Made by a program: the position numbers and the translations under genes. From an uncultured virus (IMG/VR IMGVR_UViG_3300015607_003969) (lineage: Duplodnaviria > Heunggongvirae > Uroviricota > Caudoviricetes), in the IMG/VR virus record IMGVR_UViG_3300015607_003969, positions 1-64,000 of that record: a DNA stretch of 64,000 nucleotides; one strand, 5' to 3'. Each line of letters begins with the position of its first letter. Position 1 is the first letter of the stretch. The notes below the pieces were generated by a model. It worked only from the letters and a program-made list of their open reading frames with translations, was not told the DNA's origin and did not search any database. Of the stretch, positions 4,522 to 60,370 are shown piece after piece.

Positions 4522-4821
4522 ATGCAGATAATCGTACCGCCTGATCCAAGGGCCGTCATAGACGTGCCCTTGGACCCCTCGGGAACGCGGCTTAGCGACG
4601 AGGCCCTGGCCCGGCTTTCCCTGCTCCTGGATATGCGAATCCGGATTGGATGGTCCATCCTCATCGTTGTAAGCTACTGGCTCGTGCCCCAAGGGGTGAT
4701 GTGCATCGTGCTGAGCGAATGCAGCCATCCGACGGGGAAGGTGCTCAAGGGCCCCCAAGAGATACGATCCACAAATGGGCCATTTGGTCTGATCCTGTTT
4801 GAGGAGGTCAGCCATGAATAA
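4522..4821 (+). CDS. PPDPRS-family protein
   Basis: MQIIVPPDPRA; AAGGA RBS. Confidence 0.7.
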   Translation: MQIIVPPDPRAVIDVPLDPSGTRLSDEALARLSLLLDMRIRIGWSILIVVSYWLVPQGVMCIVLSECSHPTGKVLKGPQEIRSTNGPFGLILFEEVSHE

Positions 4822-5164
4822 AAGGATTCTGGTGCCACCGGATCCGCGAAGCCCGATAGGTCAACTGCACGACGATGCTCTACACCACAGCCTCGACGTG
4901 GGGATGCTGGCGACCCTCTCCCTTCAGCTGGGAGAGCCCTTTGTAGGCGGCTGGTGTGGGCGTTTTCACGGCACCTTCAACATACTGAGTGGGCATTATG
5001 CCATACCGCTTAGCCCGGTGACCATGGCCATGACCCGAGGGCGGGTGGAGGCGGGTACGTTGATCCACTCCAAAACGAGCGACATTTCGATCTACCACCC
5101 AGGCCGAGGCCCTTACTACATCGTCGTGCTCTATGACCGCTTACACCATCCTGATTCCACCTGA
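4814..5164 (+). CDS. PPDPRS-family protein (ends at 5143 if TTA is a stop)
   Basis: MNKRILVPPDPRS; GAGGAGG RBS. Confidence 0.7.
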   Translation: MNKRILVPPDPRSPIGQLHDDALHHSLDVGMLATLSLQLGEPFVGGWCGRFHGTFNILSGHYAIPLSPVTMAMTRGRVEAGTLIHSKTSDISIYHPGRGPYYIVVLYDRLHHPDST

Positions 5165-9482: not shown

Positions 9483-10073
9483 GTGGAAGCATGCTGTGGT
9501 TCGCAGAGGAGCAGCAGATCTAGGTCTTGCCTGCCGGAGGTCCTCTACGGCCTTTCGGAGGGGAACCAGTTCATTTACCAACCCTACAGAAAATCCAGGG
9601 GGTCCGGGTGGCTGGGCGTAGGGTTTTTCAGCTGCCTCCTGAATGCGGCGGAGTACTACGCTCGAAATCTGGATCGATCCACCCTGCTACACTACGATAG
9701 TGTCGTCCCCACGGGGCTGATCGAGCTGCTCGGGGGCAACGTGCACTACAATGGGCTGCGGCCCACCGTTTTCCACCTCGCCTCGGATCTGATCGGCGCA
9801 AAGACAGAGGAGCTCTCAAGCATTCTGTCGGCCGTGACTGGGCATGACTCCAGGTTCAGTAACCTTGCTGAGTGGGATGCCACGCAGGAGTTCCCGCTGT
9901 ACCCCGCCTGGGACTATGCCGGCAGGTTCGTGCCCAGGGTCATGGGGGATCATTGGCTACCCAACTACCGCCCCTCCTGGGCCGTGGACACCGCTTTGCG
10001 TATGCTTGAGAACTCCCCCTCGGCGGGTCCTCTCTATCTTCGATTAATAGCAGGAATAACGGAGGTGGCATGA
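9483..10073 (+). CDS. Hypothetical protein, start uncertain
   Basis: Long ORF; the best RBS (AGGAGG) points to an out-of-frame ATG at 9491. Confidence 0.45.
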   Translation: MEACCGSQRSSRSRSCLPEVLYGLSEGNQFIYQPYRKSRGSGWLGVGFFSCLLNAAEYYARNLDRSTLLHYDSVVPTGLIELLGGNVHYNGLRPTVFHLASDLIGAKTEELSSILSAVTGHDSRFSNLAEWDATQEFPLYPAWDYAGRFVPRVMGDHWLPNYRPSWAVDTALRMLENSPSAGPLYLRLIAGITEVA

Positions 10074-12889: not shown

Positions 12890-13294
12890 ATGCCCTGTGT
12901 AAAGATTCCGGGCTACGTAAGCCCAACGGTGGCCATGGAGTTGGACCTAGAGGTTCCACGGGATCGCTGGCACGTGATGGAGGCACCCCTGAGGGCACGG
13001 TTGATCTTGGGGGCTTATGCACCAGAGCGGGTGCTCCGGCTGGCCCGTGTGCCCTCGTGGTCTATGATGGCCGACGGCGTATTCGAGAAGTACACCATTC
13101 TAGGCACCTCCGAGACCGAGGTTAGTATCGGCGCTGAGACCTATGACATCAAGCCCGGAGATGTCCTTGAGGTGCCGCGGCAGGTAGCGATAGCGTCCTA
13201 TCTCGGTGTGACCGGAGGGGTGCTGGTCTTCTTCAACCCTAATGATCCATTACGATGGAACACCTGCAAAAGTACTTCACCCCGCCCCTCGTAG
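12890..13294 (+). CDS. Family A paralog (ends at 13252 if TTA is a stop)
   Basis: VKIPGYVSP...IKPGDVLEV; AGGAGG RBS. Confidence 0.7.
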   Translation: MPCVKIPGYVSPTVAMELDLEVPRDRWHVMEAPLRARLILGAYAPERVLRLARVPSWSMMADGVFEKYTILGTSETEVSIGAETYDIKPGDVLEVPRQVAIASYLGVTGGVLVFFNPNDPLRWNTCKSTSPRPS

Positions 13295-15918: not shown

Positions 15919-16440
15919 ATGAAGGTGGAAACACACATGACGACGTACACCCCAGATTCGCTGAGCACCGCCCTAACGACCGGCACTGTCGGTTCGCTGA
16001 GCACCGTAGCGAGCGCCATCACCGGGACAGCTACGGCATCATATTACATCGGAACCAACAGGCCAGCACTTGAACTCTTCGTGAAGCGCGGTTGGTTCCC
16101 CGCGGACCTGACGCCTAACAGCCCCTGGGCTCAGCTTCTCCACGCTCTCGAAGCCGGTCATCCGGTGGACCCCATGGACCTGCCCTGCGTACGCTTTGGC
16201 CTGGCGGATCTAGGCATCCGTTTCACTTCGATCGCCAAGACCGAGGTAGTAGACAACCACGTCGTGGTCCGCACCTGCTCGTGTCTTATCTCCTTCGGGC
16301 GCATCGCCTTGGTAGATGAAACGCAGGACGCCCTGCACAGCGGAGACCTCGTGCATACGTCAGGCGTCCTGCGCCACATGATCCTGCGCGGGTCCGGCAT
16401 CGCGTTCATGCTGTCTTTAGGGGGGTCGTCATGCATGTGA
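15919..16440 (+). CDS. Family A-related protein (ends at 16419 if TTA is a stop)
   Basis: VKRGWFP...LISFG...LHSGDLV; alternative ATG at 15937. Confidence 0.6.
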   Translation: MKVETHMTTYTPDSLSTALTTGTVGSLSTVASAITGTATASYYIGTNRPALELFVKRGWFPADLTPNSPWAQLLHALEAGHPVDPMDLPCVRFGLADLGIRFTSIAKTEVVDNHVVVRTCSCLISFGRIALVDETQDALHSGDLVHTSGVLRHMILRGSGIAFMLSLGGSSCM

Positions 16441-18782: not shown

Positions 18783-19295
18783 ATGTTGTATTTCAACGGG
18801 ATTGAGGACCAGGAATCCAGGGAGGCTCGAAACTTCGTGCTGAGCCAGGCCTGGAGCGCGTCCTTCGCGATAAAGTCTCACCAGACGGAGGACTACGAGA
18901 CCAACAGCTACCTGGCCCAGCACCCGGATGTGCCGGTAGAGTGGCTGCTGCGCTACCTGGCGAGCTACGGCACCGCCTGGAGCAACCCCTCGCTGGAGGA
19001 TCACCTCAGGCTGAGGAGCACGTATGCCTCGGCCTACGCCATCGTCTGCAAGCACTGGCTCGGCGTGCATGTCCAGTCCACTCAGCCTCTGGGGGACGAC
19101 GTACTCCTGCGCATGGGGGTGCTGGAGCAGGCGTTGCCCCTCGTTATCGCCTCCGGGGACAGCGGCATCGCCCTGGCGGGGTACCAGGTGGAGTACGGGA
19201 CCTGGGAGATGCGACATCACGCCCTCCACTTCAGGCCTTACTGGAACAAGGTTAAGCCCTTGCTGGAGCGGATGTACGTGCTATTCGGGCCCTTA
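18783..19295 (+). CDS. (N/H)PxxP...WxNP family protein, first half of the listed 18783-19754 ORF, ending at TTA
   Basis: LAQHPDVP...AWSNPSL; TTA at 19293 directly precedes a terminator-like hairpin. Confidence 0.55.
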
Positions 19296-19299
19296 CATC

Positions 19300-19330
19300 G
19301 GGCAAGGCGCGGGGGGCGCCTTGCTTTAGC
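19300..19330 (+). terminator. Hairpin terminator inside the apparent 18783-19754 ORF
   Basis: GCAAGGCGC-GGGGG-GCGCCTTGC followed by TTTAGC. Confidence 0.5.
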
Positions 19331-19355
19331 CACGAAAGGGGGAATAAGGCGTCTG

Positions 19356-19754
19356 ATGCTGGACAAGGACCTGAACTCACACCTCTTCGAAGAGATGCTC
19401 GCCGACCCCGAGACCCCTAAGGAGTCGATAGAGCTCTGCGTGAACATCATAAACCTGCATGACTGGGCGGAGGACCCTCGGGGCGTGGAACACCGGCAGA
19501 AGCTCCTCGCGCTCGCTGTACAAAACCCGCAGATACCCCGAAAGCTTTGGTTCAAACTGTGCCACGGGTACAGCCTTGTGGAGGAGGGCGAGAGAAACCC
19601 GATCGTCGCACTGTGGCGTGTGGAGTCCCCTGCCACCATGTCACACTGGGACGAGGTGAAGGATCCACATAACGTATGGGTAGGTGCAGATGCAGAGGGT
19701 CTGCCCAACATCGTGTACACTTTTAATCGGCCCGTACTCTTCAACGTCCTATGA
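19356..19754 (+). CDS. (N/H)PxxP family protein, second half
   Basis: ATG 7 nt after GGAATAAG; LAVQNPQIP...ERNPIVALW. Confidence 0.55.
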   Translation: MLDKDLNSHLFEEMLADPETPKESIELCVNIINLHDWAEDPRGVEHRQKLLALAVQNPQIPRKLWFKLCHGYSLVEEGERNPIVALWRVESPATMSHWDEVKDPHNVWVGADAEGLPNIVYTFNRPVLFNVL

Positions 19755-20053
19755 ACCACGATTACACAGACATCCTCGACCCGAACATCTCGAAAGCTGA
19801 CTGGCTACGGCTTTGCCATATGAAGTCCGCCTTCGACATCGGCATGACGAACCCGATCTACCCGTTGTGGCTGCTGTCAGACCCTAGCTTTGCCGACAAG
19901 GTGGAGCTCGCGCGCAACACTCCCCTGGAGGATGTGGAGCGGCACACGGGCGAGGGTCTGCCCGTCACCAACATCCTGCTAGTGCGCCTGAAGGAGCGTA
20001 GCTTCGCCAGTCGCATCTTTGACGCAATCCCCTTGGAGAAGAAGGATGGATGA
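19751..20053 (+). CDS. (N/H)PxxP family protein
   Basis: ILDPNIS...MTNPIYPLWLLSDP; ATGA overlap. Confidence 0.6.
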   Translation: MNHDYTDILDPNISKADWLRLCHMKSAFDIGMTNPIYPLWLLSDPSFADKVELARNTPLEDVERHTGEGLPVTNILLVRLKERSFASRIFDAIPLEKKDG

Positions 20054-20627
20054 GTACCCGACAGATGAAGAGGAGTTCCAGGAGCTGCTTTGCCTGGCCC
20101 CCGAGCTCATGGACCCAACGGTACCGTGGCAAACCATCATGAAGGCCATGCCTGAGGGGCCTGCCGCAGAGATGGCCCTCTGTGCGGCATCCTTGAACCC
20201 AAACGCCCCCATCGCCTTCCTCCAGGAACGCCTGGAGGACAATCACTCCTGCTGCTGCTGGAGAAACCCCTGCTGGGAGGTGTACCGTCTCGGCGATGGC
20301 GTGCATATGAAGCGGCTGATGGCCTGGTCCCTTGGGCTTCAGTACACCGCCGTCCCTTCCTCGGGTGGCACGCACCTCCTGATAGACCTGGCCTTTCGCG
20401 AGACAGACATGTTCAGCCCGCAGGACATCGACGAGATTCTGGAGTTCACCTTCCGTGTGCTGCGCACAAAGCCTGAGGGCGGCCCCCACGCGTACATGGG
20501 CGTAGAGGAGGACAACTTCATGTTTTCCCGGGAGTTTGCCCTAGACCTAGGCATCCTTGACTGGTGGAGGGGCTGGCTTTCCATGGTGGATGACATGGAA
20601 CGCCTGGCCTTTGGTCTGGGCAAATAA
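20046..20627 (+). CDS. (N/H)PxxP...WxNP family protein
   Basis: ASLNPNAP...CWRNPCW. Confidence 0.6.
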   Translation: MDEYPTDEEEFQELLCLAPELMDPTVPWQTIMKAMPEGPAAEMALCAASLNPNAPIAFLQERLEDNHSCCCWRNPCWEVYRLGDGVHMKRLMAWSLGLQYTAVPSSGGTHLLIDLAFRETDMFSPQDIDEILEFTFRVLRTKPEGGPHAYMGVEEDNFMFSREFALDLGILDWWRGWLSMVDDMERLAFGLGK

Positions 20628-20726
20628 CGGGTAAAATCGGGCATAAGAATATAGATGGCACCCGCATATCCTTCGGGGTAACTGGCAGGTGCCTAGCTCG
20701 AAGCCCCTACGGGGGCCAGGGCGTCA

Positions 20727-20854
20727 GGGTGTGCCGACTGGTGGTCGGCCGTTAGCCAGATCAAAACCCCCATGCTGTTGCTCATCTCCCCGAGCACCCA
20801 TGGGTAAGTAGCGATCGACTAGCGTAGCGGGTTCGATTCCCGTCGCATCCACGA
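20727..20854 (+). ncRNA. Minimal tmRNA-like / tRNA-Ala-like RNA
   Basis: Acceptor stem GGGTGTG/CGCATCC with G3-U70 and discriminator A; T-arm GCGGG-TTCGATT-CCCGT; long irregular hairpin in place of an anticodon arm. Confidence 0.65.
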
Positions 20855-21160
20855 GGGCTGCAACGTACGGCCCCTCACTGGTCCGCCGCGCGAGGCGGTT
20901 CGAGTACGCGCCACATATGTGGCGCCCACAGGGCCTGGACTGATCATCCAGGTACTGAAAAGTTACTCGACGTTGCAGCGAAGGTCCCGGAAACCCACGC
21001 CGGAGCGTGCCCCGAGTCATGAACGGGGCAGCCAAGGGAACACCCAGCCCTTGGTGAAAGGTGGACAGCCTCGAACGGTCGCGGGCGCGACTGTTGGAGG
21101 GTTGCAGGGGTTTGCCGCACCTGCCTGTAGAGTAATCTACGGGGAATAGCGGCTTTTTAG
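20855..21160 (+). ncRNA. Highly structured non-coding RNA of unknown class
   Basis: GCTGCAACGT/ACGTTGCAGC enclosing stem, 18-nt palindrome and at least seven further hairpins; ends in TTTTTAGC. Confidence 0.45.
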
Positions 21161-21187
21161 CTAAGGAAGGTAAGGAAGGAGGGAAGG

Positions 21188-21511
21188 ATGCGGGCGGAGA
21201 GAAAGAAGGCCCGCTTCGACCTCTGGAGGGCGCAATTGCCCTACCCAGAGGCAAAGCGGCACGAAAGCGTCCGCGAGGCGTTCGTCCAATGGGACGCCTC
21301 GTCGGACGGGATGCGCCCAGCCGGCAGCGGCTGGGAAAACGTGTCCACGTGGACACTGGTGCTGCCCCGCTTTCAGGACAAGGCGGGGCGCTGGGTGCGG
21401 GAGGCCGAGTACAAGACCTCCCGCGACCTCCAGGGCCTGAGGGAGACCTTCCGGCGGATTCCGCCCTTCGGGGCGGAGGAGCGCCCGATCGGCGACTGCC
21501 GAGGGCGCTGA
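21188..21511 (+). CDS. Hypothetical protein
   Basis: Strong purine-rich RBS (AAGGAGG); followed by a terminator. Confidence 0.55.
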   Translation: MRAERKKARFDLWRAQLPYPEAKRHESVREAFVQWDASSDGMRPAGSGWENVSTWTLVLPRFQDKAGRWVREAEYKTSRDLQGLRETFRRIPPFGAEERPIGDCRGR

Positions 21512-21556
21512 AGAAAGGGGCCGGGGTACAGAGACCTGGCCTCTTTCTTTAGCCCC
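21511..21556 (+). terminator. Intrinsic terminator
   Basis: AAGAAAGGGGCCGGG...CCTGGCCTCTTTCTT hairpin then TAGCCCC. Confidence 0.6.
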
Positions 21557-21583
21557 TAAATACGGCATAAGTACAGCACAGCC

Positions 21584-22453
21584 ATGTCCCGCCAAACGAG
21601 ACGCGCAAAGAGGGAAGCCGCACTGGCACACCCGGACTACGTCAACGCTAGAACACGTGAGGACTTCGAGAAACTTCTGAAGAGTAGGCATCCTGGCGTC
21701 ATCAACGCCCTTCGGACGAATCCCCACCTACCGGCCATCCTGCGGGTGGGTGGGCTCACGAAACACCCTGCCTTCTGGGACAACCCTACAACGCAACTTG
21801 ATCTGATGGCAGGGACCGTCCCGGTCCCTATGCTAGATCTCGCCCACAGGCTGTGGGCCTATTGTCTGACGTACAAGGGTCGAACTCCCCGATGGCCAGA
21901 CCATTTGATCGAGACCGTGGAGCGTGGGTGGCAGAGCCTTACGCCGAAGCAGATCAACTTCGTCGTTGCTACCCTCACCGCCCGCCGACAGGCGGACTGG
22001 TGCCTGCGGGTGCAGAGGGGTCTGATCCCTATATTTCTAGCCGACGCACGCCGGACGATCGTTGGCCCCCTCACGGAGGAAATCCTGGGCCGTGCATGCT
22101 GGTTGTTGAGCCACACAGAGGCATTCACATTCTTCAGTGCGAGGCTCCTGGTCGGGAGGGGGGTGCAAATCACGCTAAGGACCTACTCACAGATGGTCCC
22201 CATCCAGGAGGGTCTAGCGCCCAACTCAGCTACACTCTGCGTGCTTGCAGGGGGGCGGTGGTGGGGGTTGACCTACGGGCATGTCGCTACAATCGGCAGC
22301 ATTGTCACGGCATTCCAAGAGCTGGATGAGGGGACGGCCAGGGCCATGGTCAGCGATCTCCCCACCTTTCCCTGGGTGCTCTCCCGGCTCCAGGGGCGTG
22401 CAGACACCCTGATGGGTCGTAGGCATAACCGAGGCAAGTACCCGGGATTGTGA
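21584..22453 (+). CDS. (N/H)PxxP...WxNP family protein
   Basis: ALRTNPHLP...FWDNP. Confidence 0.6.
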   Translation: MSRQTRRAKREAALAHPDYVNARTREDFEKLLKSRHPGVINALRTNPHLPAILRVGGLTKHPAFWDNPTTQLDLMAGTVPVPMLDLAHRLWAYCLTYKGRTPRWPDHLIETVERGWQSLTPKQINFVVATLTARRQADWCLRVQRGLIPIFLADARRTIVGPLTEEILGRACWLLSHTEAFTFFSARLLVGRGVQITLRTYSQMVPIQEGLAPNSATLCVLAGGRWWGLTYGHVATIGSIVTAFQELDEGTARAMVSDLPTFPWVLSRLQGRADTLMGRRHNRGKYPGL

Positions 22454-22480
22454 GGGATAAGTGCCTGGGAGACCCAGATC

Positions 22481-22993
22481 ATGCACAAGTTCGTCAATGT
22501 TTCGAAGTTCAGCGACCTCCTCGGAACGAAGGACCACTGGTTGATCCACAACTACGGCGAGGACCCCTGTGAGGGCGCCTTGTGGTGGATGGCGGCGTTT
22601 ATGCTGGGCGCGGCCCACCGGTTCAGGGAGGAAGCCCGGCCGGGCGTGGAAGAGATCATCAAGGACCAGGATACGGGGATCTGGCCTGCGGTGGAGAGCG
22701 CTGTGCTGGGCCTCCCCTACGATGTTCTCGCGCGGGACACGGCGGCGATCAGCAGCTGGTCTGACGCCAACCGCTTCCAGATCGGCTCCATCTGCGAGGG
22801 CCGTGACATCCTGGAGTCGATCTGCCACGCCCTGGAGCTGGCCGGGTTCGGGAAGTGCTTGCGCCACGAGCTGGCGGAGTATGACAACCAGTACAGCCAG
22901 CACAAAAGCTACCTTCGAACGGTGCCCAGCCCGTTTGCCTCCCTGAAGGAGGTGGCCCTGGTCGAGCCGCAGCGCTGGTGGGGGTGGCTGTGA
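22481..22993 (+). CDS. Hypothetical protein
   Basis: GGGAG RBS; high-GC3 codon pattern. Confidence 0.6.
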   Translation: MHKFVNVSKFSDLLGTKDHWLIHNYGEDPCEGALWWMAAFMLGAAHRFREEARPGVEEIIKDQDTGIWPAVESAVLGLPYDVLARDTAAISSWSDANRFQIGSICEGRDILESICHALELAGFGKCLRHELAEYDNQYSQHKSYLRTVPSPFASLKEVALVEPQRWWGWL

Positions 22994-23289
22994 CCGACGG
23001 GGAAGCGCTGCTGCTTCGTGCAGCGGCTTACTGCACCCCTGCCTTCGAGGTGGTGCTCAAGTCTCACATCCTTCACGGCTTCGGTCCGACGTGGGACAGG
23101 GTCCGAAGCTCCTTCCGATCGGGGGCGGAGGGGCTCGTCGTCTCGGCCGTCGAGCACTGGCGACACCAGGACATCGCTGCGTTCAAAGCCGTGCTGCTGG
23201 AGGTCGGGAAGGCCTCTCACGCCGATGAGCGCATCGCGAGGGTGGCTGTGCGTGCCCTGCACGCTGCGATCCAGAAGGCGCGCCTCTAG
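22990..23289 (+). CDS. Hypothetical protein
   Basis: GTGA overlap. Confidence 0.5.
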   Translation: MTDGEALLLRAAAYCTPAFEVVLKSHILHGFGPTWDRVRSSFRSGAEGLVVSAVEHWRHQDIAAFKAVLLEVGKASHADERIARVAVRALHAAIQKARL

Positions 23290-27002: not shown

Positions 27003-30000
27003 TTAGCTCTGATCGATGGGGTCCATCGAGACAAAGATGGGGTGCTGGCCCGGCGTGCCGATCACCGTAGGGACAAGGATGTCCGGACGCTTGATGGCCA
27101 CCTGACTGGCCAGGAATAGGTAGAGGTAGCTGTGGAAGGCGTCGTCCGTCTTGTTGCTGGCGTGGTCGTAGACGACCACGCGCTGCGTCTCGCTATATTC
27201 CGCAGTAATGTTGGTGAAGTCCTCCGCGAAGGATCCGCCAAACTCCTCCCACCTCGGAAAGACCACAGCTTTACGCTTGATGGCGTTGATGTGGTCCGCC
27301 ATGACCAGCGTACGGTAAAGCTTCCATCGGTGGATCTTGCGATCGTACTCCACCTTGTACTTTGCCCGGGCCAAGTGCTGGTACACCTGGATACGGCCAG
27401 GCCCAAATATCCGCATCAGGGTGTCGTTCTGCTGTGCCCCGAAGCCGAAGTCCGTGCCGCAGATCTTCACCTGAAATCGCGTAAGGATCTCCACGATGAT
27501 ATTCATCTGGAGCTGGAAATCAGAGGCCTCAGCCCCCGTGAAGCGCTTCATGTAGAAGACCGTGAACTTACCGTTCAGGTAGGTGCCCAGAGACAGGATC
27601 GTGTAACTGCTGGTGCCGAACCCCCAGTCAATGCCTGCAAATACAGGGTTTGACCACACGCTGGGGAGGAAGTGCTCCGGGTGGATGTACGTCGTCCCCC
27701 GGAAGGCGCCTGTCATGGATATCCGGGGGTCGCAGCATGCGTTGATCTCGGAGGAGGTAAGGGGCCTGTCCGCAGCGTCCAGACTGAGCCCCAGGACCTC
27801 GTTGTAAAACTGCTGCGGAGGGTAGGTGTTGTAGGCGTGGAGGATCTTTTCCCAGTCGATCCATGCTGCCATCAACTGGGGGATACGGTACCCCTCAAAC
27901 TCGCCTTCAGGGTGCTGGTGGTACCAGCCCGCATCCGGGTGCTGTGCCTGGATCAGCTTACCGCACCTGGAGCAGATCAGCCCCTTCTTCCCTATGTTCT
28001 TCTCCCCGAGAGCCTGCCAGAACCTGCCCCCTGCGGTCTTGGCCTTGGAACCGCAGCGGTCACAGGGCACCAACCACTCGCCCATCGTGCTGCGGTGTCT
28101 GCCCTCACGGTTCAGGCCTGACCACCGCTCCTCGATGTGGTTGTTCATGCTCTTCGGCGTGCCCGAGTAGCATCGACTCTGGTACAGCTTGGGGGCGTGG
28201 CTTATCGCCGGCTCGATGACGGGGATGTGGTCGGATATAAGGTCTTGCAGCTCATCCAGGTCGAGGAGGTACGCGGCCTGGCCACGCACGCGGTCTGCGC
28301 TCAGGAAGGCGCTACGCAAGACCACCTTAGCTCCGTTGTTAAACTCCTTTTCCAACACGTTCTGCGTGGCCCCCTTGGAGAGGGCTTTCAGGACAGCGGA
28401 GGTCTCGACAGGTAGCTTGAGCCTGTCCGTGCTAAACGTCTTCGTCTGCTGGGCGGAGGGGGAGACGTAGAGCACCTTGTACCCCGGGATAAGGGCACAA
28501 AGAGCCAAAGCCCTGTTACCAAGGTAGGTGCTGTTGTGCGTGACCAGGCCGTTGGCCACGAAGCTGTGGCCTGGCGACACCTGGATATCCAGGCACTTCA
28601 CATCCCCTACGGGCTCGATGCTGACAATGTTATCCCACAGCAGATCCGTGTCCGCGTGCTGCTGCATGGCGTTCAGCCTGTGCGGGTGCAGCTTCAACCC
28701 CTGGAGCTTACCCACGAGAGCTTTGAGCCTGTCGGGAGTGAAAGCTCGATCGATCTTTGTCTTCAGCTGCCGGAGACTAGGGGCCTGAGCGTCGTCCAGT
28801 AGGAGGCGCAAATCCCGGTTAAGGCCGTCCGGAAAGGTATCGTAGGGGCTACGGGATTGCCCGGGCTCGTGCTGGTATTTCTGCTCCTCGCACAGGATCG
28901 TATTCATGCGGGAGATGCCGTCGGAGGTCTCCACGCGCAAGTAGCCGTACTCCTGCCCGGCTACGCGTTGCACACGCCTGGAGGTCGGGATCCCTGAACG
29001 CCAGAGAAGCCGCTGGAGGCTATCCAGAAGCGTGTGGCGCTGATCCATGAATCTTATGCTGATAGAGCCAGCCAGACTCACGTGCACCGTGCCTGCGCAC
29101 GCCCACAGGTACCGCAAGAAGAGCCTCTGCTCCTCCGCGCTGCTCTTGAACACCCAGGAGGGTATCGTCGCGCCTGCTGTGGTCGAATCAAGCACCGAGA
29201 GCACGCTCCTACAGTCCACACCGAGATAGAAGGAAGGGTTAGACCCCGGCGTGCGCAGGTAGACGCGGTAATCGGCGTCCTCCGTGTACCCCAAATTAAA
29301 CAGCGACTCCTCGACGGCCCGTCGAATAGTCGTGGTCCTGCAAACCACCTGGTATCCAGGATCGCGGTGCACGCAAGGACCAAGAGCGATAGCCGTCCAC
29401 AGGATCTTGAACACCTGCGCTTCATCGAAGGGGGGCCTCGCGCTAGCGGCATAAAGGTCCGGCGCATTCAGCTTACGGACACTCGCTACCTTGTCCCCCA
29501 CCACGAGGTCCTTGGCCTCGGTCCAGGCACCCCACGTCCGGATAGGGTGGGTCTTGGCACAGACGAGCTGGTGGCCCGTACGCGTTGTCAATTTGAGACA
29601 GGGCTTCCTGCGCTCGGGGCTTACCCACACCACCTCACCTTCACCCAGAACACCCTCCCCCTTGAGGGTCACGACGCGCTGGCCTACCTTGCAGTGCCGG
29701 ATCTCCTGCACCTCCCCCGAGGGCAGAAGGATGGGGGTACGCGCCCCTACACACTTTTCCACCTGACGCCCACACATCAGCAGGATGTCCCTGGCTGGCG
29801 TATCGTAGATGGGTATCATGTGACGCCGGCCGTGGAAGGAGAAGGGTGCAAAGCGCCCCTCCGCGTCCGGGATTGTGAGAACCGCTTGAACGAACTCAGA
29901 AAGGGTTGTCTCTATGACCGAAGTCCCCAAGTCTCCGATGTCTGGCCCATCTACCCCCTCATCGGAGTTGAACTCCCCGGGGTCATCGAACTCGTCGTCG

Positions 30001-35537: not shown

Positions 35538-38500
35538 TCAGTAGTCGAAAGGTCGATTCTTGCCCTTAGTCTCTACCCCAGGCTTGCCGAACTCTGCCCC
35601 ATAAGCAAGTCCGGGCACCGGGTGCGAGCCGTGGAGCCGGCTGACAGCCCCGAGCGCAGCGTTCTCCTTGAGCGTGCCCCGGAGCCTCTGGTGGTTGAGC
35701 ACAGCCATCCAGTCGGTCGTCGCAGCCAGGGGCAGCATGTCCACGCCCATGAGCACGGGGCTGTGCTCCACCGGAGGCTTACCCTCTGCAACCCTCTCGG
35801 CGTTAACCTTCTTCAAGGAGGACCGAGGATAGAACTGCCCGCGGAGGAAGTCCGGGTGATCGTGAGGGTCCACGATCTTCGTGACGTTGCCCATCGCCTT
35901 CACGACCACCTCGATGGCGCGCTTACGAACCCCCTCCGACTCATAGAGTTTGTGCATCTCATCGGACAGAAAGCGCTGAACCCGCGGCATGTCGTGGGTG
36001 GCCTCGTAAAGCCTGTGCGGGTTGATCATCGTGCGGTTTGGATCGCTGAGCATGTCCCCGCGCTTCACCTCCATGCCCACCTTGGGCGGGGACCAGGGCT
36101 GATACCCGGGCACGGAGTCCGCATGAGGAAGGTCCTCGTGCAGGTAGTGGCCATCCGGGTCCTTACCCACGAAGTGACGATGGTCTCCCACGAACACCTC
36201 GGCTCCGGTAGGCGTGGGTACGATCTTCGTCACCTTGCCATTCACGTTGACGAGAGAGGCGCTGTTGGGCGTCTTGTCCGGCAAGAAGGTGAGCTGTTCG
36301 AGGCGCTGGAAGCTACCCACAGCCCCACCCTTACGGTCCGTAGCGACACCGCCGGAGTGAAACGCCTTCAGCGTCAGCTGCACAGCTCGCTCACCCAAGG
36401 CGTGCGCGCTGAGGACGCCGATATTCGTGCCCAGGTCGTGATGCTTGCCGTTGGACGACAGGCCAAAGCACTTCTGGCAGACCCCCTTCTCGCTATCGCA
36501 GGTAAGCGGGGACCTGACCGTAAGCTTGGCCCCGGGATCCACGGAGACGATGTGATCCAAGGTCTTCTTGTCGAGGAGGGTGCCTGCGGGCAGGTGGAGG
36601 GCTCCCAGCTTCAGGTCTGCCGCCAGATGCCGGTCCACCACGTCCTTATGCGTGGCAGGCATGGAGATGCCCGCCTTCGTCCCACAGTCGTGGCTATCGA
36701 TCAGGTAGGACATCGAGGTGTTCTGGAGGAGCTTGGTCATGTACCCAGGGTCCTGCACCTCCTGCACCTTCTTGACCGCGCCGGAACGCGCACCGTAAGC
36801 GCCGATCCAGTACTCATGCATCTTCAACCCCTCCCCGAAGGAGTGAACGATCGGCGTGGGGATGAGGCGATCCGCGCTGTCTTTCATGACGACAGGCGCA
36901 AGCCGCAGCTGCTGGTACTGGTCGTCGCTCGGCTTGACGCCAGCCTCGTTCATGCGCTTGAGGCTGTTGTCCGGGTCCCCCGTCTTCTTGTGCCGCTCGC
37001 GCATCTCGGCGGAGGCCTTGAGGTAGATGTCGACCGTGCGGCGGTCCTTCTCCGCCTTGCTCAGGCCCTTCAGAGCTTCCACGTCAGCGTGTGCCTTCTG
37101 GAGCACGGGGTCACGCGCTTCCTTATCAGCGAAGAAGTCGGAGAGCCCAAAGGAGTGCGCCCCGACAGGCACAACGGCGTGCTTGGTCAGGGGAGTCCTT
37201 ACCAGACCAGACGCAGCCCCGTAGCCAAGCTCCTTCATCTTGTCAGCGAAGACGGGGAAGTCCTTCGCGTGCGCCTTGCCGACCTCGGAAAACAGACCCT
37301 TCAAGGCCTTGCCGTTGAAGGAGAGCCCAAGGTCTGTGCGCACACGATGCTGCATGGCCTCCGGCATAGCCTCTGCCAGAAGAATCCTGCCAGCCGTCGT
37401 CTGTTCGCCTGCCACATGGATCTTGTCCGACACCGTGATCTTCTGGAGCGCTAGGGCGTCAATAGCGGCGTGCTTGTCAGGGAACTTATGGTTCGTGTCC
37501 GCCCCGACCCTGCCGAGCTTGTGCAGCCCTAGCTGGGCCTCCATGGAGGGCGTGTAGGCAGGAGCTCCGGTGGTCTCGTTGAACAGGTTCTTGGAGGGGA
37601 GCATCTTGATGGCGTCGCTCACCTCGTCGTGCGATGACGGCACGTAGACGCTCATCGTGTCCCAGACGAGGAGACCGTCGTCCATCACGAAGTTGAGGCT
37701 TTCGTCCACGGTGAGGTCGTAGAGCTCTTCCTTGTCGCCAGTCTCCTTGACGGAGACGATCTCATCCCAGAATAGGCCGCCCCCGACGGTCATGCGATAC
37801 CAGGCCTGCACGAACGACGTGGGGTTCTTGTGGGCTTCGTAGAGTCGCGCAGCCGTGGAGCGCTCCACCCATCCGGACTGCACGCCTTCTCCAATCTCGT
37901 CCGCCACCCAGGCAGGGAAGGGCACCAGATCGACCATGGTGCTCTTACCCCCCTTGCGCCAGAGCCTCTTGCGATTCCACGCGCTGGGCTTGAACCAGGA
38001 GGCCTTGTAGAGCGAATCCCTGCACAAGAGCACAGAGTCTCGCTCCTCCCTGCACGGCACCCCCACGCTGCGCAACAAGTTGCAGAGGGCGCGGGGGTCA
38101 GTCGTATCGACACGCGCCGTGTCGATGTCCAGAGCCGCCCCCAAGAACCCCGTAAGGACACCCTGCCTGAAAGCTGTGGGCCGGATGATCGCAGACTCAA
38201 GGAGCGTGCGAAGAAGGGTAGTCGACCGGTACTTCTGGGGAGGGGTGCAGCGCTCCTGAGCCAAGGGGTTGCCGTCGTAAAGGGCAAGCTCCTCCCCCAA
38301 CGCATGGCCAAGAGCCTCCGTAGCTTTCTCCTCCCGGCCATGGACTGGGATACTGGGGCTCAGGTGCTCCTCTACACGGCCCAACACGGGTACGGCTGCC
38401 CCCACGGAGTTTGCGGGCTTGCAGTTGGTGGCGGTGAGCGTAGCCGTATCCAGTACGGCAAGAGAGTGGTCCTGGGAGCAGATCACCTTGCGTCCAGACC

Positions 38501-41500
38501 GGAAGGTGACCTCCCAGGCGACGCACCCAGGATGGACGCTGAAGGAGCGCACCGCACACGGGCGCATGGAGCCGTTCACCATGCCAAACACGTAAGTGCT
38601 GGGCGGGACATCGTACTCCTTCGTTCCGCCCAGCGAGCGATGCTCCGACCCAGCCACCCTCGGGAAGTCCTTGATGTCGCAGGATCGAGCCAGCCAGGTG
38701 CCGTGAACGCGCTCGGCCAACAGGACGCGCCCCTTGATGCTGTCCCCGTCGTGGTCCGCGTTAAACCCGCCGGTTACCAGCGGGTGCAGCTTGATGGCGT
38801 TGCCGGGGATGGCCTGGGCGTAGAAGGCCTGGATAGAGTACTTGTGCAGAGCGGGGTCTCGCTTGATCAGGACAGGGCGCTCGCTCAAGACCTGATTGAG
38901 TGCGGACCAGACGGAGGGGTCCGATTTGCCGCGCTCCACCTGGCTGAGGACCTCCTGGGCTTCCAGCGTAGTCTTGGACCTTCCGGACTTGACGAGCTGG
39001 TTGACGACGAAGGGCCGGAACAGGGTCAGCGCCTGCTTTTCGGGCAGCCCGACCTGGTCGAGGTGGAGATCCGGTCCAGGGATGATCACACCTCGGGCGC
39101 TCATGTCCTGGCGACGCGACAGCAACCCCTGCTGGAAGAGACCGAGCTTGGGTGACGTGCCGTGGATCTGCTGGAGAAGGCCTTTCTGCTTAGCCCCCTC
39201 CGGCAGAGCTCCCGCGCCGAACAGGGCCTTGACCCCGTCGTAGACCGCCATACGGAAGGGAGCCTTCTCTGCCTCGGGCAGGTACGCCATGGCGGGGTGG
39301 CCGAGCTTGCTGTTGATCTGCCCAAGCTTCATGTAGAAGCCGTTGGTGTCCTCGAAGCGAAGCGCGCCGTCTTCCATGACGGAGAGGGGGCGCAGCTTGG
39401 GGGGCAGCACCGGCACGTTGTGCAGCACATAGGCCTCTTCGGGCTTTAGCCCGAGCTTGTCGAGGGCCTGGAGGTACCGCGCCTTCCTATAAAGGGCGTC
39501 TGCCGTGGAGGGTGGGGCCTTGTTCAGGGCTGCCTTGGTCTTCGAGAGCTCATCCGCCACCTTGATGCCCTTGAGCATCTCCTCGATAGCGTGGCCGCCC
39601 ACCTTGCCGTTGACCTTGACTTTGCCCTGGAGAATCTCTTCAAAACGGGGCCCCGTGATGCCCAGGAGCTTCTTGATGGGCTCTTCGAAGATAGGGTTGG
39701 GGAGGGGCTCCGACAGGGGGATGTGAGACCACTTGGTTCCGCCGTGGCCCCCCGTCATCTTCTCGTCGAAGATACCTCCGGTAATCGGCTTGTACTGGTT
39801 GGTGGTCGGGTCCATCTTCGAGTGGACCGCAGAGGCCGCGTCCTTGATCGCACCGGCACTCATCGATAGGACTTGCTTGTCCGTCATGGGGGATAGAAAG
39901 AACTCGGACCCCTTCTTCTCGACGTTAATGCCAGCGCCCTTGAGCATCTCCGTGAAGCGGTGGAAGGCAAACGTCGGCTTAGGGGGCGGCAACGGCAGAC
40001 CTTTCTGCATCGCCATCCAGGCCTCTACGTGCTGACTCTTCCACTTCTTGGCCTCATCGGTCTCCGGGTCCTCACCCTCGGACTTGTAGGTCATGGCCGC
40101 GCGGAGGATGTTCTTCGCCCCGTGCGCGAGCAGGGCGTACATGCCGAGCTGGCCGTAGCTCTGTCCGCCGGTACCTCCGCCAGAAGCCGGGGCAAAGGTA
40201 AGGGAGTCGTACTTCTCGTCGGAGGGCAGCTTGGGGAGCCCCATGCCTGCGCGCACGGAGTTCTTCTTTGCAGCTTGGTGCACGAGCTTGATGAAGTGCT
40301 GAGGCCCGACCAGGACCTTGCCCAGGCTCTGCCCCGTCTTCGGGTCGATCAGCTCCTCCTTGTCGGAGATGCCGTGCTCCTTGAGCTCCTTGGCCATCTT
40401 CTGACTCCAATCCTCGACGTGAGGATCGAAGTTCTTGACCACGTACGTCTTGCCAGTCTTCTCAGCGATCTTGCCGGCCAAGGTCTCGTACACCTGGCCC
40501 ACGTTCATACGGCCACCCAACCCTAGCGGGTTGAAGATGATGTCCACGGGTTTGCCGTCTTTGGTCTTGGGCGCCTCGTGGTCCGGGATGATGTAGCCGA
40601 CAACGCCCTTGCCGCCGTGGCGGTTGCTGTTGCCGCTCCAGCAGGGCTTTCCGTTACGACGCACGTAGAGGACGTGACCGGGGACCGTTACACAGAAAAC
40701 AGGGCCTGTGTAGTTTTCGATGATCCTCTCACTCTGCGCGTTCTGCTTCTTGGCGTGGTGGTGGTTTACCTCCGGAGCCAGTTTGCTGTTGATGATCCGA
40801 ACGGTGTAGCGCTCCGACGCCCAGTAGGTCCGGCCGTTTTGTTCGAACGCGTGGGCTGGATCAACCTTGATGTTGGCCGCCTTACCGATGTGCAGACAGA
40901 GGCGCTGCACATCATCGGCCAGCCGACGAGACGTGGTGGTGTAGCAGATAGGACGATCATTCTTCGTGTGGCCGTCCCCCCACATGAGCCACCGGAAGAG
41001 CACGTCCAAGTCGTCCTTCGGGTAGTCGAAGACTTCGTTTGGGATGAACTTGTCCTTGCACTTACCGAAAGTCTGGAAGTGCGCCAGGGCTTCCTTGGAG
41101 TGGATCCGGGCACGATCAGGGGTCTTGGTGTACCGAACCCCCATCCTATCGAGCTCGGCAAAGAGCTCCTCTCTGCCCGTGGGCTTCACCTGGGCGATGT
41201 CGATGCCGTAGGTGCCAGACTCCGGAGCATTCACGCAACAGCCTTCGGACAAAAACATCCCAAGGAGAGCCAGGTAGTCGCGGCCCGTAAGCCCCAACAC
41301 CCCGGAGCCGTTAACGGCAGCGGCACGACCTGCCCAGTTGCCGTCTTTCTTGTAGCGGACGCGCTTACCAAGAAGAGTGTCGGCCCTCACCAGCTTGTAG
41401 GGGCGCTCGCGGTCACGGGTGGACTCTTGCACGTACATCCGGTGGTTTGCGGTCACAAGAAGGTCGATCTGTTGCGTCTCCAACGAGTACATCCGACCCC

Positions 41501-43952
41501 CTTCTGCGTAGCTGTGGACTTCGGAAGGGCGGCTGTAGCGGATCTCCCCGTCAAGCAGGGTACAGACCTCATCTTGCAGGTTCACCTTGGACACAGGCTT
41601 CCAGCCTGTGCGCGTAAGGACCTCGGTATTTTCATCGAAGCAGAGCTTGTCAGCGATCTGCAAGGGTTCCACAGATTTGACGTGTATGTGCACCCCCTTG
41701 GGGCTTTTATGCACAGCGACGACCTCGCCCTCGGTCTCACCCTCCCAGCGAAGGCTCTTGTCCGTGTGCTGGCTGGTGAGGCTCTTGCGGAGAGCCCCCA
41801 CACCTACGCGGTCCTTGAGGGTGAAAGGCTGAAGTGCGAGGAGCAGCGGATCCCCCGGCTGTACCTTCGACCCGACCTTGGGGAAGCCCTGGTCATCCAG
41901 GTGCTCGTACTGCTCCTTGCGGTACAGACCAGGGTTGGTGTTCTGGAACTTGGTCTTGCCGAATACGGTGCGGTCGTCCGTGTTCAAGAAGTGCTTGGTC
42001 AGGTGCACGCTGGAGAGCTTCTTCGCAGCGCTCTCCGTGACCACCATGGAGTCTTCGAAGTTCTTGCCGAAGTACGGCATGTAGGCCACACGCAGGTTCT
42101 TACCCGGCGCGAAGACCCCGCCTCGGGTGAAGTTCGTATCGGCGAGGGGCTGGCCCGTCTTTACCTTGTCCCCCTCCTTAACAAGGGCCTCCGAGTGGAA
42201 CACGCTCTTCGAGTCGTTCAGGGGGTAGTTATGGTAGAGCTGAACCACGGCGCTCTTACCGTCCGCCCCCTTCACGTGGATGGCGTGAGGCGTGACCTTG
42301 GTGACGACGCCGTCGTGCGGGGCGAGGTGCCCGATCTGGTGCCCGAATAGCTTCTCGAAGGTGTCACCGGCCGGCCCTGCCACTTGAACGAGGGGCTTGT
42401 CCCTGTCCTTCAAGGAAATGCTTTGCTCCATGTGACGGATGGCCATGCTGACGCGCCCGCCGCTGTTGTTCTGCACAAACGGCACCATGGCGGAGGTGAG
42501 GGCGAACATGTTGGACGGGCTACGCATGACGTAGTCCGCCTCATGGAGCGGGCCCTCGACGATCTCATTGTCCTTGCCGAGAATCTTCACCTTCTTTGCG
42601 ATCGGCTTGGGGTGCCCATCCACAAACTCCACCTGGTCTGCCAGGGCCACCTTGCTCTTGTAGGCGGTGGCAGGGCTGACCCACTCCATCTTCTTGGTGC
42701 GGTTGTTGTAGAGGGGGATGTGGGGCTGATCTCCAATCAGCTTCACTCCGATGGGAAGGCGCAGGGACACCCCCGTGTTCGAGCCTTCCGGCGTAGCGAA
42801 GGGGTCGATAAACCCCAGGTGCGACGGGTTGATGTACTTGGCCTCGTCCGTCACCTGCGTCTCCGACCTGATGCCGCCGGGGCCCATAATCGTCGTCTGC
42901 ATGGCCGTGCCCAGCATGTCGAGCGGGCTCACCTGTTTGGCCGGGTTGACCAGAGCACTCTGGAACAGGGCGCTGACCGCGGGGTTCAGGAACCCTGGCG
43001 TGACGATGTCGTGCAGCTTGTCCGACCCCTTGTTCAGCTGCCTCGACATCTTCATCTTCACGTTGGGTACCGCTGCTTTGATCTGGTCATGCAGCAGCTC
43101 CCCCGTGGCCCTGAGCACCTTGAAGGGCAAGGCGTCACGGTCGTCCTCGGGCTGGCCCGCCTGCACGGCAAGCAGCCTCTTGGATGCACGGGTGAGGGCA
43201 TCCCCCTCCACGCTTTCGAAGCGCTTACCCAGGGTGATCTCCGTCACATCGGGGTGGAGTTTGCTGGCCGCCATGACCTTGTGCAGGTTATCCAGCGCCT
43301 GCTGTTCCGTCGGAGACCCCTGCGTGTTGGTGCTGGTCCTGTAGAACTGCGCGAGCGTGCTGGAGTTACGCCTGTTCTTGGCGTTGGCCTCCCAGATGTC
43401 CTTCCCCCAAGCCTGCTGAAGCTCCGTGTCGGTCACCCCCATCGCCTTGAGGATGGGGTACGCGGGCATATTGGCCTTCTTGTAGAGGATAGAGAACTGG
43501 TTGGTCGGGGGGTCAAAGGTAAGGTCAAAAGCGGCCCTGCCCGTCACGTTGAACTGCGTACGCAGTTCGCCGTTGCTCCTGCGCCGGGTGTAAGCGCCAG
43601 GCCGAAGCTGCCATTGGTTGGCCACCTGGTGCTCTTGACCGCGGTAGATGTAGCTGAGCCGGTTGGTGGTCCTGGGAAGGTCCAAGATCTTGATCTTCTT
43701 GCGATCGAGAACCTCCCCCTTCTCGTTCTTGAGCACCATGGTCCCATGGACGGGGATGGACCAAGTCTCCTCGCCTAGCTTGGCCTTGTACTGGGATCCG
43801 ATGTCGTGAGGATCCTTGGCCGCCGTATCGATGTGCAACGCCTCCAAGTGCAGAGACTTGTCCCGCCCCCGCAGGGGGAACACGCCATTCAGCGCGGTCA
43901 CCGTGTGCCGGACAACGTTGTCGAAAGCCTCGTCTGGGTCTTGGAAGGCCAT
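35538..43952 (-). CDS. rpoBC: Fused beta-beta' two-barrel RNA polymerase with two inteins
   Basis: beta motifs GPGGI, HPS-like NPSHLGFIDPFATPEGSNTG, GKNFEDS, DKL|SNRHGGKG, RMNVGQVYE; beta' motifs VPVLPPKLRP, RQDMSARGVI, KRDPALH, NADHDGD, GARSG, RSPLTC..VCQKCFG, QLTLKAFHSGG. Confidence 0.95.
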   Translation of the reverse strand: MAFQDPDEAFDNVVRHTVTALNGVFPLRGRDKSLHLEALHIDTAAKDPHDIGSQYKAKLGEETWSIPVHGTMVLKNEKGEVLDRKKIKILDLPRTTNRLSYIYRGQEHQVANQWQLRPGAYTRRRSNGELRTQFNVTGRAAFDLTFDPPTNQFSILYKKANMPAYPILKAMGVTDTELQQAWGKDIWEANAKNRRNSSTLAQFYRTSTNTQGSPTEQQALDNLHKVMAASKLHPDVTEITLGKRFESVEGDALTRASKRLLAVQAGQPEDDRDALPFKVLRATGELLHDQIKAAVPNVKMKMSRQLNKGSDKLHDIVTPGFLNPAVSALFQSALVNPAKQVSPLDMLGTAMQTTIMGPGGIRSETQVTDEAKYINPSHLGFIDPFATPEGSNTGVSLRLPIGVKLIGDQPHIPLYNNRTKKMEWVSPATAYKSKVALADQVEFVDGHPKPIAKKVKILGKDNEIVEGPLHEADYVMRSPSNMFALTSAMVPFVQNNSGGRVSMAIRHMEQSISLKDRDKPLVQVAGPAGDTFEKLFGHQIGHLAPHDGVVTKVTPHAIHVKGADGKSAVVQLYHNYPLNDSKSVFHSEALVKEGDKVKTGQPLADTNFTRGGVFAPGKNLRVAYMPYFGKNFEDSMVVTESAAKKLSSVHLTKHFLNTDDRTVFGKTKFQNTNPGLYRKEQYEHLDDQGFPKVGSKVQPGDPLLLALQPFTLKDRVGVGALRKSLTSQHTDKSLRWEGETEGEVVAVHKSPKGVHIHVKSVEPLQIADKLCFDENTEVLTRTGWKPVSKVNLQDEVCTLLDGEIRYSRPSEVHSYAEGGRMYSLETQQIDLLVTANHRMYVQESTRDRERPYKLVRADTLLGKRVRYKKDGNWAGRAAAVNGSGVLGLTGRDYLALLGMFLSEGCCVNAPESGTYGIDIAQVKPTGREELFAELDRMGVRYTKTPDRARIHSKEALAHFQTFGKCKDKFIPNEVFDYPKDDLDVLFRWLMWGDGHTKNDRPICYTTTSRRLADDVQRLCLHIGKAANIKVDPAHAFEQNGRTYWASERYTVRIINSKLAPEVNHHHAKKQNAQSERIIENYTGPVFCVTVPGHVLYVRRNGKPCWSGNSNRHGGKGVVGYIIPDHEAPKTKDGKPVDIIFNPLGLGGRMNVGQVYETLAGKIAEKTGKTYVVKNFDPHVEDWSQKMAKELKEHGISDKEELIDPKTGQSLGKVLVGPQHFIKLVHQAAKKNSVRAGMGLPKLPSDEKYDSLTFAPASGGGTGGQSYGQLGMYALLAHGAKNILRAAMTYKSEGEDPETDEAKKWKSQHVEAWMAMQKGLPLPPPKPTFAFHRFTEMLKGAGINVEKKGSEFFLSPMTDKQVLSMSAGAIKDAASAVHSKMDPTTNQYKPITGGIFDEKMTGGHGGTKWSHIPLSEPLPNPIFEEPIKKLLGITGPRFEEILQGKVKVNGKVGGHAIEEMLKGIKVADELSKTKAALNKAPPSTADALYRKARYLQALDKLGLKPEEAYVLHNVPVLPPKLRPLSVMEDGALRFEDTNGFYMKLGQINSKLGHPAMAYLPEAEKAPFRMAVYDGVKALFGAGALPEGAKQKGLLQQIHGTSPKLGLFQQGLLSRRQDMSARGVIIPGPDLHLDQVGLPEKQALTLFRPFVVNQLVKSGRSKTTLEAQEVLSQVERGKSDPSVWSALNQVLSERPVLIKRDPALHKYSIQAFYAQAIPGNAIKLHPLVTGGFNADHDGDSIKGRVLLAERVHGTWLARSCDIKDFPRVAGSEHRSLGGTKEYDVPPSTYVFGMVNGSMRPCAVRSFSVHPGCVAWEVTFRSGRKVICSQDHSLAVLDTATLTATNCKPANSVGAAVPVLGRVEEHLSPSIPVHGREEKATEALGHALGEELALYDGNPLAQERCTPPQKYRSTTLLRTLLESAIIRPTAFRQGVLTGFLGAALDIDTARVDTTDPRALCNLLRSVGVPCREERDSVLLCRDSLYKASWFKPSAWNRKRLWRKGGKSTMVDLVPFPAWVADEIGEGVQSGWVERSTAARLYEAHKNPTSFVQAWYRMTVGGGLFWDEIVSVKETGDKEELYDLTVDESLNFVMDDGLLVWDTMSVYVPSSHDEVSDAIKMLPSKNLFNETTGAPAYTPSMEAQLGLHKLGRVGADTNHKFPDKHAAIDALALQKITVSDKIHVAGEQTTAGRILLAEAMPEAMQHRVRTDLGLSFNGKALKGLFSEVGKAHAKDFPVFADKMKELGYGAASGLVRTPLTKHAVVPVGAHSFGLSDFFADKEARDPVLQKAHADVEALKGLSKAEKDRRTVDIYLKASAEMRERHKKTGDPDNSLKRMNEAGVKPSDDQYQQLRLAPVVMKDSADRLIPTPIVHSFGEGLKMHEYWIGAYGARSGAVKKVQEVQDPGYMTKLLQNTSMSYLIDSHDCGTKAGISMPATHKDVVDRHLAADLKLGALHLPAGTLLDKKTLDHIVSVDPGAKLTVRSPLTCDSEKGVCQKCFGLSSNGKHHDLGTNIGVLSAHALGERAVQLTLKAFHSGGVATDRKGGAVGSFQRLEQLTFLPDKTPNSASLVNVNGKVTKIVPTPTGAEVFVGDHRHFVGKDPDGHYLHEDLPHADSVPGYQPWSPPKVGMEVKRGDMLSDPNRTMINPHRLYEATHDMPRVQRFLSDEMHKLYESEGVRKRAIEVVVKAMGNVTKIVDPHDHPDFLRGQFYPRSSLKKVNAERVAEGKPPVEHSPVLMGVDMLPLAATTDWMAVLNHQRLRGTLKENAALGAVSRLHGSHPVPGLAYGAEFGKPGVETKGKNRPFDY
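37659..38741 (-). mobile_element. Atypical intein (361 aa) immediately after NADHDGD
   Basis: D|SIKG...CSQDHSL (block B)...LYDLTV..NFV..GLLVWD|T. Confidence 0.85.
40629..41642 (-). mobile_element. Intein (338 aa) with LAGLIDADG endonuclease in the RNAP beta region
   Basis: L|CFDENTEV...TANHRM; LLGMFLSEG and LMWGDG; WSGN|S. Confidence 0.9.
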
Positions 43953-60293: not shown

Positions 60294-60311
60294 AATCGAG
60301 TACAAGCTACG

Positions 60312-60351: not shown

Positions 60352-60370
60352 AACACTTTCAGGAGATCTC

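Follow-up and report, generated by a model that had tools for sequence, protein, structure and literature searches.

What is a 128-nt sequence with the alanine-identity end of a tmRNA, and with no message, doing in the genome of a phage? The sequence comes from a large uncultured wastewater phage, and the window (the whole stretch of DNA that was analysed, 64,000 nucleotides) covers positions 1 to 64,000 of an IMG/VR record that is 125,659 bp long, is 67% complete (CheckV) and has a G+C content of about 61%. A twin record of 162,306 bp, which is 87% complete, is 100% identical to it across positions 19000-23000. A PHROG search identified a large terminase, a 2804-aa RNA-polymerase-like ORF, DnaB, a primase and PolA, while the majority of the other ORFs were unmatched, and no cultured phage had a PolA more than 28.8% identical to that of this phage. 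The element (20727-20854, plus strand) is located in a 560-nt gap, 20628-21187, that is bounded by the plus-strand ORFs 20019-20627 and 21188-21511, neither of which had a Pfam or PHROG match. Two ORFs cross the gap, one on the minus strand (20724-21356) and one on the plus strand (20919-21149), and both were rejected as genes. Since they showed a flat G+C content by codon position and no Pfam match, we regard the gap as non-coding.

The sequence-only reading had described a tmRNA-like RNA with alanine identity and with neither pseudoknots nor a normal tag. This description was borne out by the end-to-end alignment to the Rfam tmRNA model (RF00023) and by the presence of both G3.U70 and A73, and it has a precedent in Mycobacterium phage DS6A. 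The seven acceptor pairs are G1-C72, G2-C71, G3.U70, U4-A69, G5-C68, U6.G67 and G7-C66, of which the first three, together with the discriminator A, had been pointed out beforehand and are read directly in the sequence (Table 1). The pairs 1-124 and 3-122 have a predicted probability of 0.997. Alanyl-tRNA synthetase (AlaRS) recognises G3.U70 together with A73, according to the rule as stated in PMC3968760, and the 128-nt element has the 7-bp acceptor stem, G3.U70 and A73. The T arm (5 bp, 7-nt loop) abuts the acceptor 3' strand directly. Its canonical sequence and the CGA in the place of CCA are as described earlier, and the segment said to resemble the tmRNA D-loop was found as TGGTGGTCGGC at 20739-20749.

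Table 1. Coordinates in the window of the parts of the 128-nt element, of the surrounding gap and of ORFs with a TTA codon near their end.
Feature	Position	Strand	Basis or remark
Acceptor stem, 5' strand, GGGTGTG	20727..20733	+	tmRNA model positions 1-7; carries G3 of G3.U70
D region, holds TGGTGGTCGGC	20734..20749	+	Alignment to DS6A; predicted 6-7 bp hairpin with GGT loop
Irregular closed arm, 75 nt	20750..20824	+	Fold; four helical segments, 8-nt end loop
Linker, 2 nt	20825..20826	+	Sequence
T arm, GCGGG/TTCGATT/CCCGT	20827..20843	+	Sequence; tmRNA model posterior probability * throughout
Acceptor stem, 3' strand, CGCATCC	20844..20850	+	Sequence, tmRNA model alignment
Discriminator A	20851	+	Sequence, tmRNA model alignment
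Trailer CGA, no encoded CCA	20852..20854	+	Sequence, tmRNA model alignment
Leader of the gap, two hairpins	20628..20726	+	Not significantly structured, z -1.10
Variants in the leader	20631, 20639	+	Run X6
Multi-branch domain with 10-bp closing helix, directly 3' of the element	20855..20985	+	Fold compared with shuffles
Remainder of the gap, with hairpin 21031-21055	20986..21187	+	Fold; one variant contig
Examples of TTA-ended ORFs	4799-5164, 9483-10073, 12890-13294, 15919-16440, 50715-51566, 59016-60353		

The 75-nt closed arm occupies the place of the anticodon arm in a tRNA, or of helix 2 plus the message in a tmRNA. Every helix proposed for it beforehand (closure by CGTTAG/CTAGCG, then GATC/GATC, CCCATG/CATGGG and TGCTC/GAGCA) recurs in the minimum free energy (MFE) fold, and the short frame reading MLLLISPSTHG-stop is indeed present, running from ATG to TAA. 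Stop codons occur in all three frames of the arm. The message part of a tmRNA, that is, the resume codon, the tag frame, helix 5 and the pseudoknots PK1-PK4, is absent, with 292 positions of the tmRNA model being replaced by 70 nt. The MFE fold of the element has an energy of -50.6 kcal/mol (z -2.5 to -2.6, with 4 of 200 shuffles as good). Keeping the D region open costs 10 kcal/mol (-50.6 versus -40.6 kcal/mol), the pair probabilities in this region being 0.92-0.999, and the predicted D hairpin gives a cloverleaf-like four-way junction. The D-loop of tmRNA, as described in PMC3968760, has no stem and is held in an extended form by SmpB; the D region of the element contains the tmRNA motif yet is predicted to form a 6-7 bp hairpin.

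To place the element among known RNA families, we searched it with covariance models and gene finders. Positions 1-374 of RF00023 aligned to exactly 20727-20854 with a score of 18 bits. The E-value was 4e-5 when 801 nt were compared with 4227 families, and over the 125,659-bp genome this was 1 match among 4 candidates scored (E 1.5e-6). The gathering score of the family is 47 bits and the element consequently had no Rfam match at the gathering threshold. As a control, an unrelated tRNA-rich phage contained 19 places, several of them tRNA-sized, that matched RF00023 at 9.7-32.9 bits. Because tRNAs reach similar scores, the RF00023 score alone cannot separate a tmRNA from a tRNA-like RNA, and the 18 bits show an acceptor and T-arm half of the tRNA-Ala/tmRNA type, not membership in the tmRNA family by itself. 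An ordinary or intron-containing tRNA was equally considered. The tRNA model (RF00005) at E<=1 left the element unmatched and found only the two real tRNAs of the phage (64.7 and 51.1 bits), and ARAGORN reported neither a tRNA nor a tmRNA in the 128 nt, with no tmRNA at the 80% threshold either. The only call obtained with the intron option had an intron of 1844 nt and is spurious. With the cut-off relaxed to E<=10, the stretch 20500-21300 had only two additional Rfam matches, flavi_FSE with an E-value of 0.38 and tmRNA_permuted with one of 8, which we attribute to chance.

The closest published counterpart is the form in phage DS6A, listed by Hudson, Lau and Williams 2014 as 'Mycobacterium phage DS6A (TLD only)' and described in print as 'little more than the TLD' (PMC4131195, PMC11915505); Hudson, Lau and Williams add that a molecule similar to it gave strong tmRNA inhibition, perhaps via titration of SmpB (PMC4131195). 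The 2025 tmRNA database paper, in its section on such forms, places it among the CDS-less organellar tmRNAs and states that the endogenous tmRNA was inhibited in E. coli (PMC11915505). Both statements about inhibition cite Mao et al. 2009. We located the gene at 28478-28560 in JN698994.1 (83 nt; tmID 11587 in the tmRNA Website), where it is unannotated. Like our element it is encoded by a phage and has a 7-bp acceptor stem, G3.U70, A73 and a canonical T arm, with no encoded CCA, no tag frame and no pseudoknots, and its inner part is closed by a hairpin. The likeness extends to the sequence right after the acceptor stem, where the alignment reads TGGTGGTCG[G/A]CCG and the two genes agree in 12 of the 13 bases of the D-loop string TGGTGGTCGRCCG (CG included in the 13). 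The differences are in the length (83 nt in DS6A versus 128 nt here), the inner arm (about 30 versus 75 nt), the linker 5' of the T arm (4 versus 2 nt), the RF00023 score (43.2 versus 18 bits) and the D region, for which no strong stem is predicted in DS6A as compared to a hairpin worth 10 kcal/mol in the element.

To quantify this resemblance, we built a covariance model solely from the 128-nt element (R1) and ran it on 47 records. It recovered the copy in the twin record (160.9 bits) and, at 25.1 bits each, a 125-nt mini-tmRNA at 286-410 of locus L132 (E 3.8e-4) and the gene of DS6A (E 6.4e-4), which was the sole match in the DS6A record; there were no other matches. The DS6A gene is thus detected by both models, RF00023 and R1, as is the element. 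In summary of the comparison with the DS6A type, the element has the acceptor and T-arm half with alanine identity, no message, a hairpin-closed inner part and a likeness in sequence and structure (25.1 bits, 12 of 13 D-loop bases). The L132 gene, located on a 35.9-kb viral contig (IMGVR_UViG_3300024520_000253), scores 70.6 bits on RF00023, which is above the cut-off. It belongs to the same size class as the element and consists of a tRNA-like domain closed by a 55-nt inner part, but it differs in having a textbook tmRNA D-loop, GGATTCGAC, a GGAC linker and an encoded CCA. With standard tmRNA (RF00023) the element shares the alanine-identity half and a helix that departs from the junction at the place of helix 2, whereas it lacks PK1-PK4, the resume codon and the tag, is about 240 nt shorter and has a D region that is predicted to be stemmed. 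The CDS-less organellar tmRNAs, reported from jakobid and other mitochondria (RF02544) and as two plastid genes of about 65 bp, have likewise lost the message and kept the tRNA-like part, but they are found in organelles, alongside a targeted SmpB, as set out in the corresponding section of PMC11915505. No separate match of RF02544 to the element was found among the Rfam matches listed.

Several searches were made for further relatives. Single queries with the flanking 202-aa protein, PolA and TerL returned only the 100% identical twin contig, the 202-aa protein found only itself among 5.8 billion proteins, and a blastn search with the gap gave no match in 50,697 phage records. A gapped pattern of the acceptor stem and T arm had 0 matches in metagenomes, and a strict D-loop pattern with a gap of 30-60 found DS6A only. 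The reverse-complement pattern with a gap of 55-85 had matches at no fewer than 119 loci in IMG/VR, at least; 6 of the 121 matches listed had a full acceptor stem, and these 6 comprised one clear mini-tmRNA (L132), two weak ones (L108 and L120) and three that were rejected as tRNA pieces or A3-U70 forms. The two weak candidates are related tRNA-like genes of about 130 nt with G3.U70 and an encoded CCA, situated within phage tRNA arrays, and that in L120 scores 15.2 bits on the tmRNA model. A D-loop pattern run over genome contigs yielded 11 matches and no mini-tmRNA: six were tRNA-Ala-like genes behind a chance match, four were seemingly chance and one was inside a full tmRNA. We also considered an attP-type copy of the 3' end of a host tRNA or tmRNA, which was rejected when an exact copy of the 22-nt T-arm/acceptor string turned out to be absent from 185,579 species genomes; no integrase was seen near the element.

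We then asked what the relatives of the phage carry. From an alignment of PolA homologues we obtained 56 loci and searched 44 sister records, with PolA sequences 37-50% identical to that of this phage. Five of the 44 (G011, G019, G028, G032 and G042, loci L202-L206) encode full-length tmRNAs of 335-373 nt with scores of 85-114 bits, above the Rfam cut-off, one contains a 41-nt tmRNA fragment, and the remaining 38 gave no match at E<=0.001. The genes for tmRNA are thus common in the lineage of this phage. ARAGORN identified tags in three of the five, namely ANDNATPALAVDKAA, ANDNEVAQRLAA and ANDNYLADVA, and an encoded CCA is missing in four. None of the 44 records contained a homologue of the element (R1, E<=0.1). 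Since no diverged homologue was found, the only other copy being 100% identical, there is no covariation in the dataset. Two of the five sister tmRNA genes adjoin a homologue of gene 103703-104470 of this phage, next to which no tmRNA remnant was found here. The element resembles the sister tmRNAs in the T arm only and, given also the lack of a remnant in that neighbourhood, a descent from them is not demonstrated.

Taken together, we interpret the element as a tag-less tmRNA mimic, an enlarged version of the DS6A type with a predicted stemmed D arm, that competes with trans-translation in the host, and we estimate the probability of this interpretation at about one half. Its anatomy was observed, as were its resemblance to the mini-tmRNAs of DS6A and L132 and the tmRNA genes in the wider kin; the processing, charging, binding and effect of the RNA are inferred. 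RNase P would cut the transcript 5' of G20727, and after trimming of the 3' end behind A20851 a host enzyme would add CCA. The RNA could then be charged by AlaRS through G3.U70 and A73, and its acceptor/T-arm half would be bound by EF-Tu and perhaps by SmpB. As it has no resume codon, tag frame or pseudoknots, full trans-translation is impossible, and the most likely effect is therefore competition with the tmRNA-SmpB system of the host, by which phage proteins on stalled ribosomes would escape the destruction tag. No SmpB gene was found in either the 125,659-bp record or its twin, and there were 0 RNA runs among the 12 runs listed for the locus. The predicted D hairpin, the RF00023 score at the level of tRNAs and the lack of homologues and covariation count against membership in the tmRNA type.

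The surroundings of the element bear on an alternative that we consider unlikely, though the best of the rivals, namely that it is a tRNA-like module for processing or stabilisation, at which RNase P and RNase Z would release or cap the RNA from 20855-21187 or the upstream mRNA, with the alanine identity being incidental. The 131-nt domain directly 3' of the element folds with -62.4 kcal/mol, which none of 200 shuffles equalled (z -4.05), and matched no Rfam family. Further downstream, two bases in the loop of hairpin 21031-21055 were exchanged jointly (C21041 to G and G21047 to C) in one contig of run X6 with a depth of 2.7, possibly as a compensatory pair. The strong fold and the paired swap make it probable that the gap encodes one or more longer structured RNAs, with the tRNA-like gene as one of the modules. 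The position of the element inside a non-coding gap of 560 nt and just 5' of the structured domain, the cloverleaf-like junction with its predicted stemmed D arm, and the hint from the paired swap that the structure of the gap RNA matters would all suit a processing module. Such a module would however leave unexplained the combination of G3.U70 and A73, the agreement with DS6A at 12 of 13 D-loop bases and the reciprocal matches with mini-tmRNAs, and the tRNA model fails to recognise the element.

Strain variants at the locus came from contigs of four runs, from wastewater or freshwater, that span it in part. Inside the 128 nt there were 0 substitutions and one deletion of a single C at 20767 (run X6), as compared to 4 changes at 20615-20639 and 3 at 20858-20905 in the flanks; with so few variants and an overall divergence of about 1%, the low variation in the element is not significant. 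As a second alternative, the element might be what is left of a tmRNA or tRNA-Ala gene that is decaying and no longer functions, but this is improbable. The full-length tmRNAs in the kin make an origin by deletion conceivable, and the weak family score, the missing CCA and the lack of homologues are as expected for a remnant. However, none of the 12 pairs in the acceptor stem and T arm is broken, the T loop has its canonical sequence, the 75 nt inside fold into a clean closed arm and not debris, the inner parts of the sister tmRNAs show no residual similarity to it, and runs from several studies (2017-2025) contain the locus with no more than one indel.

Still less probable is an alanine-accepting tRNA mimic directed at a partner other than SmpB, either as a decoy for a host defence that cleaves tRNAs or as a donor or sponge for AlaRS or EF-Tu. 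The predicted stemmed D arm with its cloverleaf-like junction and the lack of an anticodon loop according to ARAGORN and RF00005 would fit such a role, yet no partner gene was identified, the flanking ORFs being without Pfam or PHROG matches, and the D-loop string matches a tmRNA-derived RNA. A working mini-tmRNA with a short tag from the inner arm, translated from a 17-codon frame (GCT 20775 to TAG 20825-20827) or from the ATG frame, is hardly credible: the arm does have stops in all three frames and one frame does open with an alanine codon and end in ..LA-stop, but we estimate that about 15% of 70-nt sequences with the same composition would have a stop in every frame, the helices that enclose the candidate frame have pair probabilities >0.95, there is no equivalent of a pseudoknot or of helix 5, and ARAGORN finds no tmRNA even at the 80% threshold.

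The sequence-only reading had also named the element as a speculative partner for a pattern of termination at UUA. We examined the pattern in a simple set of 124 ORFs with 39,235 codons from the whole genome, and it proved to be real. The TTA codon is rare in frame, with 47 occurrences in the 124 ORFs, and 20 of the 47 are located within the last 20 codons of an ORF, compared to a background of 6.3% (p 2e-12). About one ORF in six has an in-frame TTA at the place where a stop is expected (examples in Table 1). In the tails of the ORFs there were 20 TTA in frame versus 10 and 12 out of frame, whereas in the bodies the counts were 27 in frame versus 218 and 109 out of frame. Downstream of a terminal TTA the coding periodicity is lost, the G+C content by codon position being 0.54/0.72/0.56 past the TTA versus the coding pattern of 0.62/0.47/0.77, and the start of the next gene is often near the TTA (distances of -1, -1, -1, 1, 2, 11, 15, 17 and 23). 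A complete sister phage with the same G+C content showed no such accumulation (1 of 14 versus a background of 7.2%), and compared with this one sister phage the pile-up is real and specific to the phage studied here. In ORF 59016-60353, a terminator-like hairpin with a T run (60290-60353) was observed within the last 15 codons; it falls after the in-frame TTA of the ORF and just before the PolA gene.

The phage genome encodes a tRNA(UAA) at G000:C1:92378-92451 on the minus strand, outside the window; its anticodon stem contains a C.C mismatch, and CCA is not encoded. With a length of 74 nt, a short variable arm and G as the discriminator, it is not like a bacterial leucine tRNA. It is conceivable, though distinctly improbable in our view, that the tag-less RNA is part of how the phage ends its genes at UUA, with the tRNA(UAA) as the switch to read-through. 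In a host unable to read UUA, a terminal UUA would make ribosomes pause, and the alanine-charged, tag-less RNA together with the SmpB of the host could then accept the chain with no degron being added. Alternatively, the RNA would obstruct the host tmRNA, and the proteins would go untagged; the tRNA(UAA) of the phage would then switch the TTA-ended genes to read-through. This scheme draws on the circumstance that the kin keep full-length, tagging tmRNAs and this phage has only the tag-less one. What ties the TTA pattern to the mini-tmRNA is their co-occurrence in one genome, which we treat as a coincidence.

For the tag-less tmRNA mimic, to return to the preferred interpretation, the sources cited above contain in the sections concerned a single phage case in print, DS6A, and one reported inhibition experiment. 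The element suggests that this form can be stretched to 128 nt and can bear a D arm that is predicted to be stemmed, and since other members of its lineage have complete tmRNAs, tagging and non-tagging versions lend themselves to a natural comparison. The element is also found in the one genome of the lineage, among those examined, with a pile-up of TTA at gene ends. By itself the element is of moderate interest, and this would become high only if the link to the TTA-ended genes is true, in which case it would tie ribosome rescue to an unconventional ending of translation. Elsewhere in the window, on the minus strand at 35538-43952, the single ORF of 2804 aa had PHROG matches to several families of beta-type RNA polymerase subunits and looks like a fused giant phage RNA polymerase.
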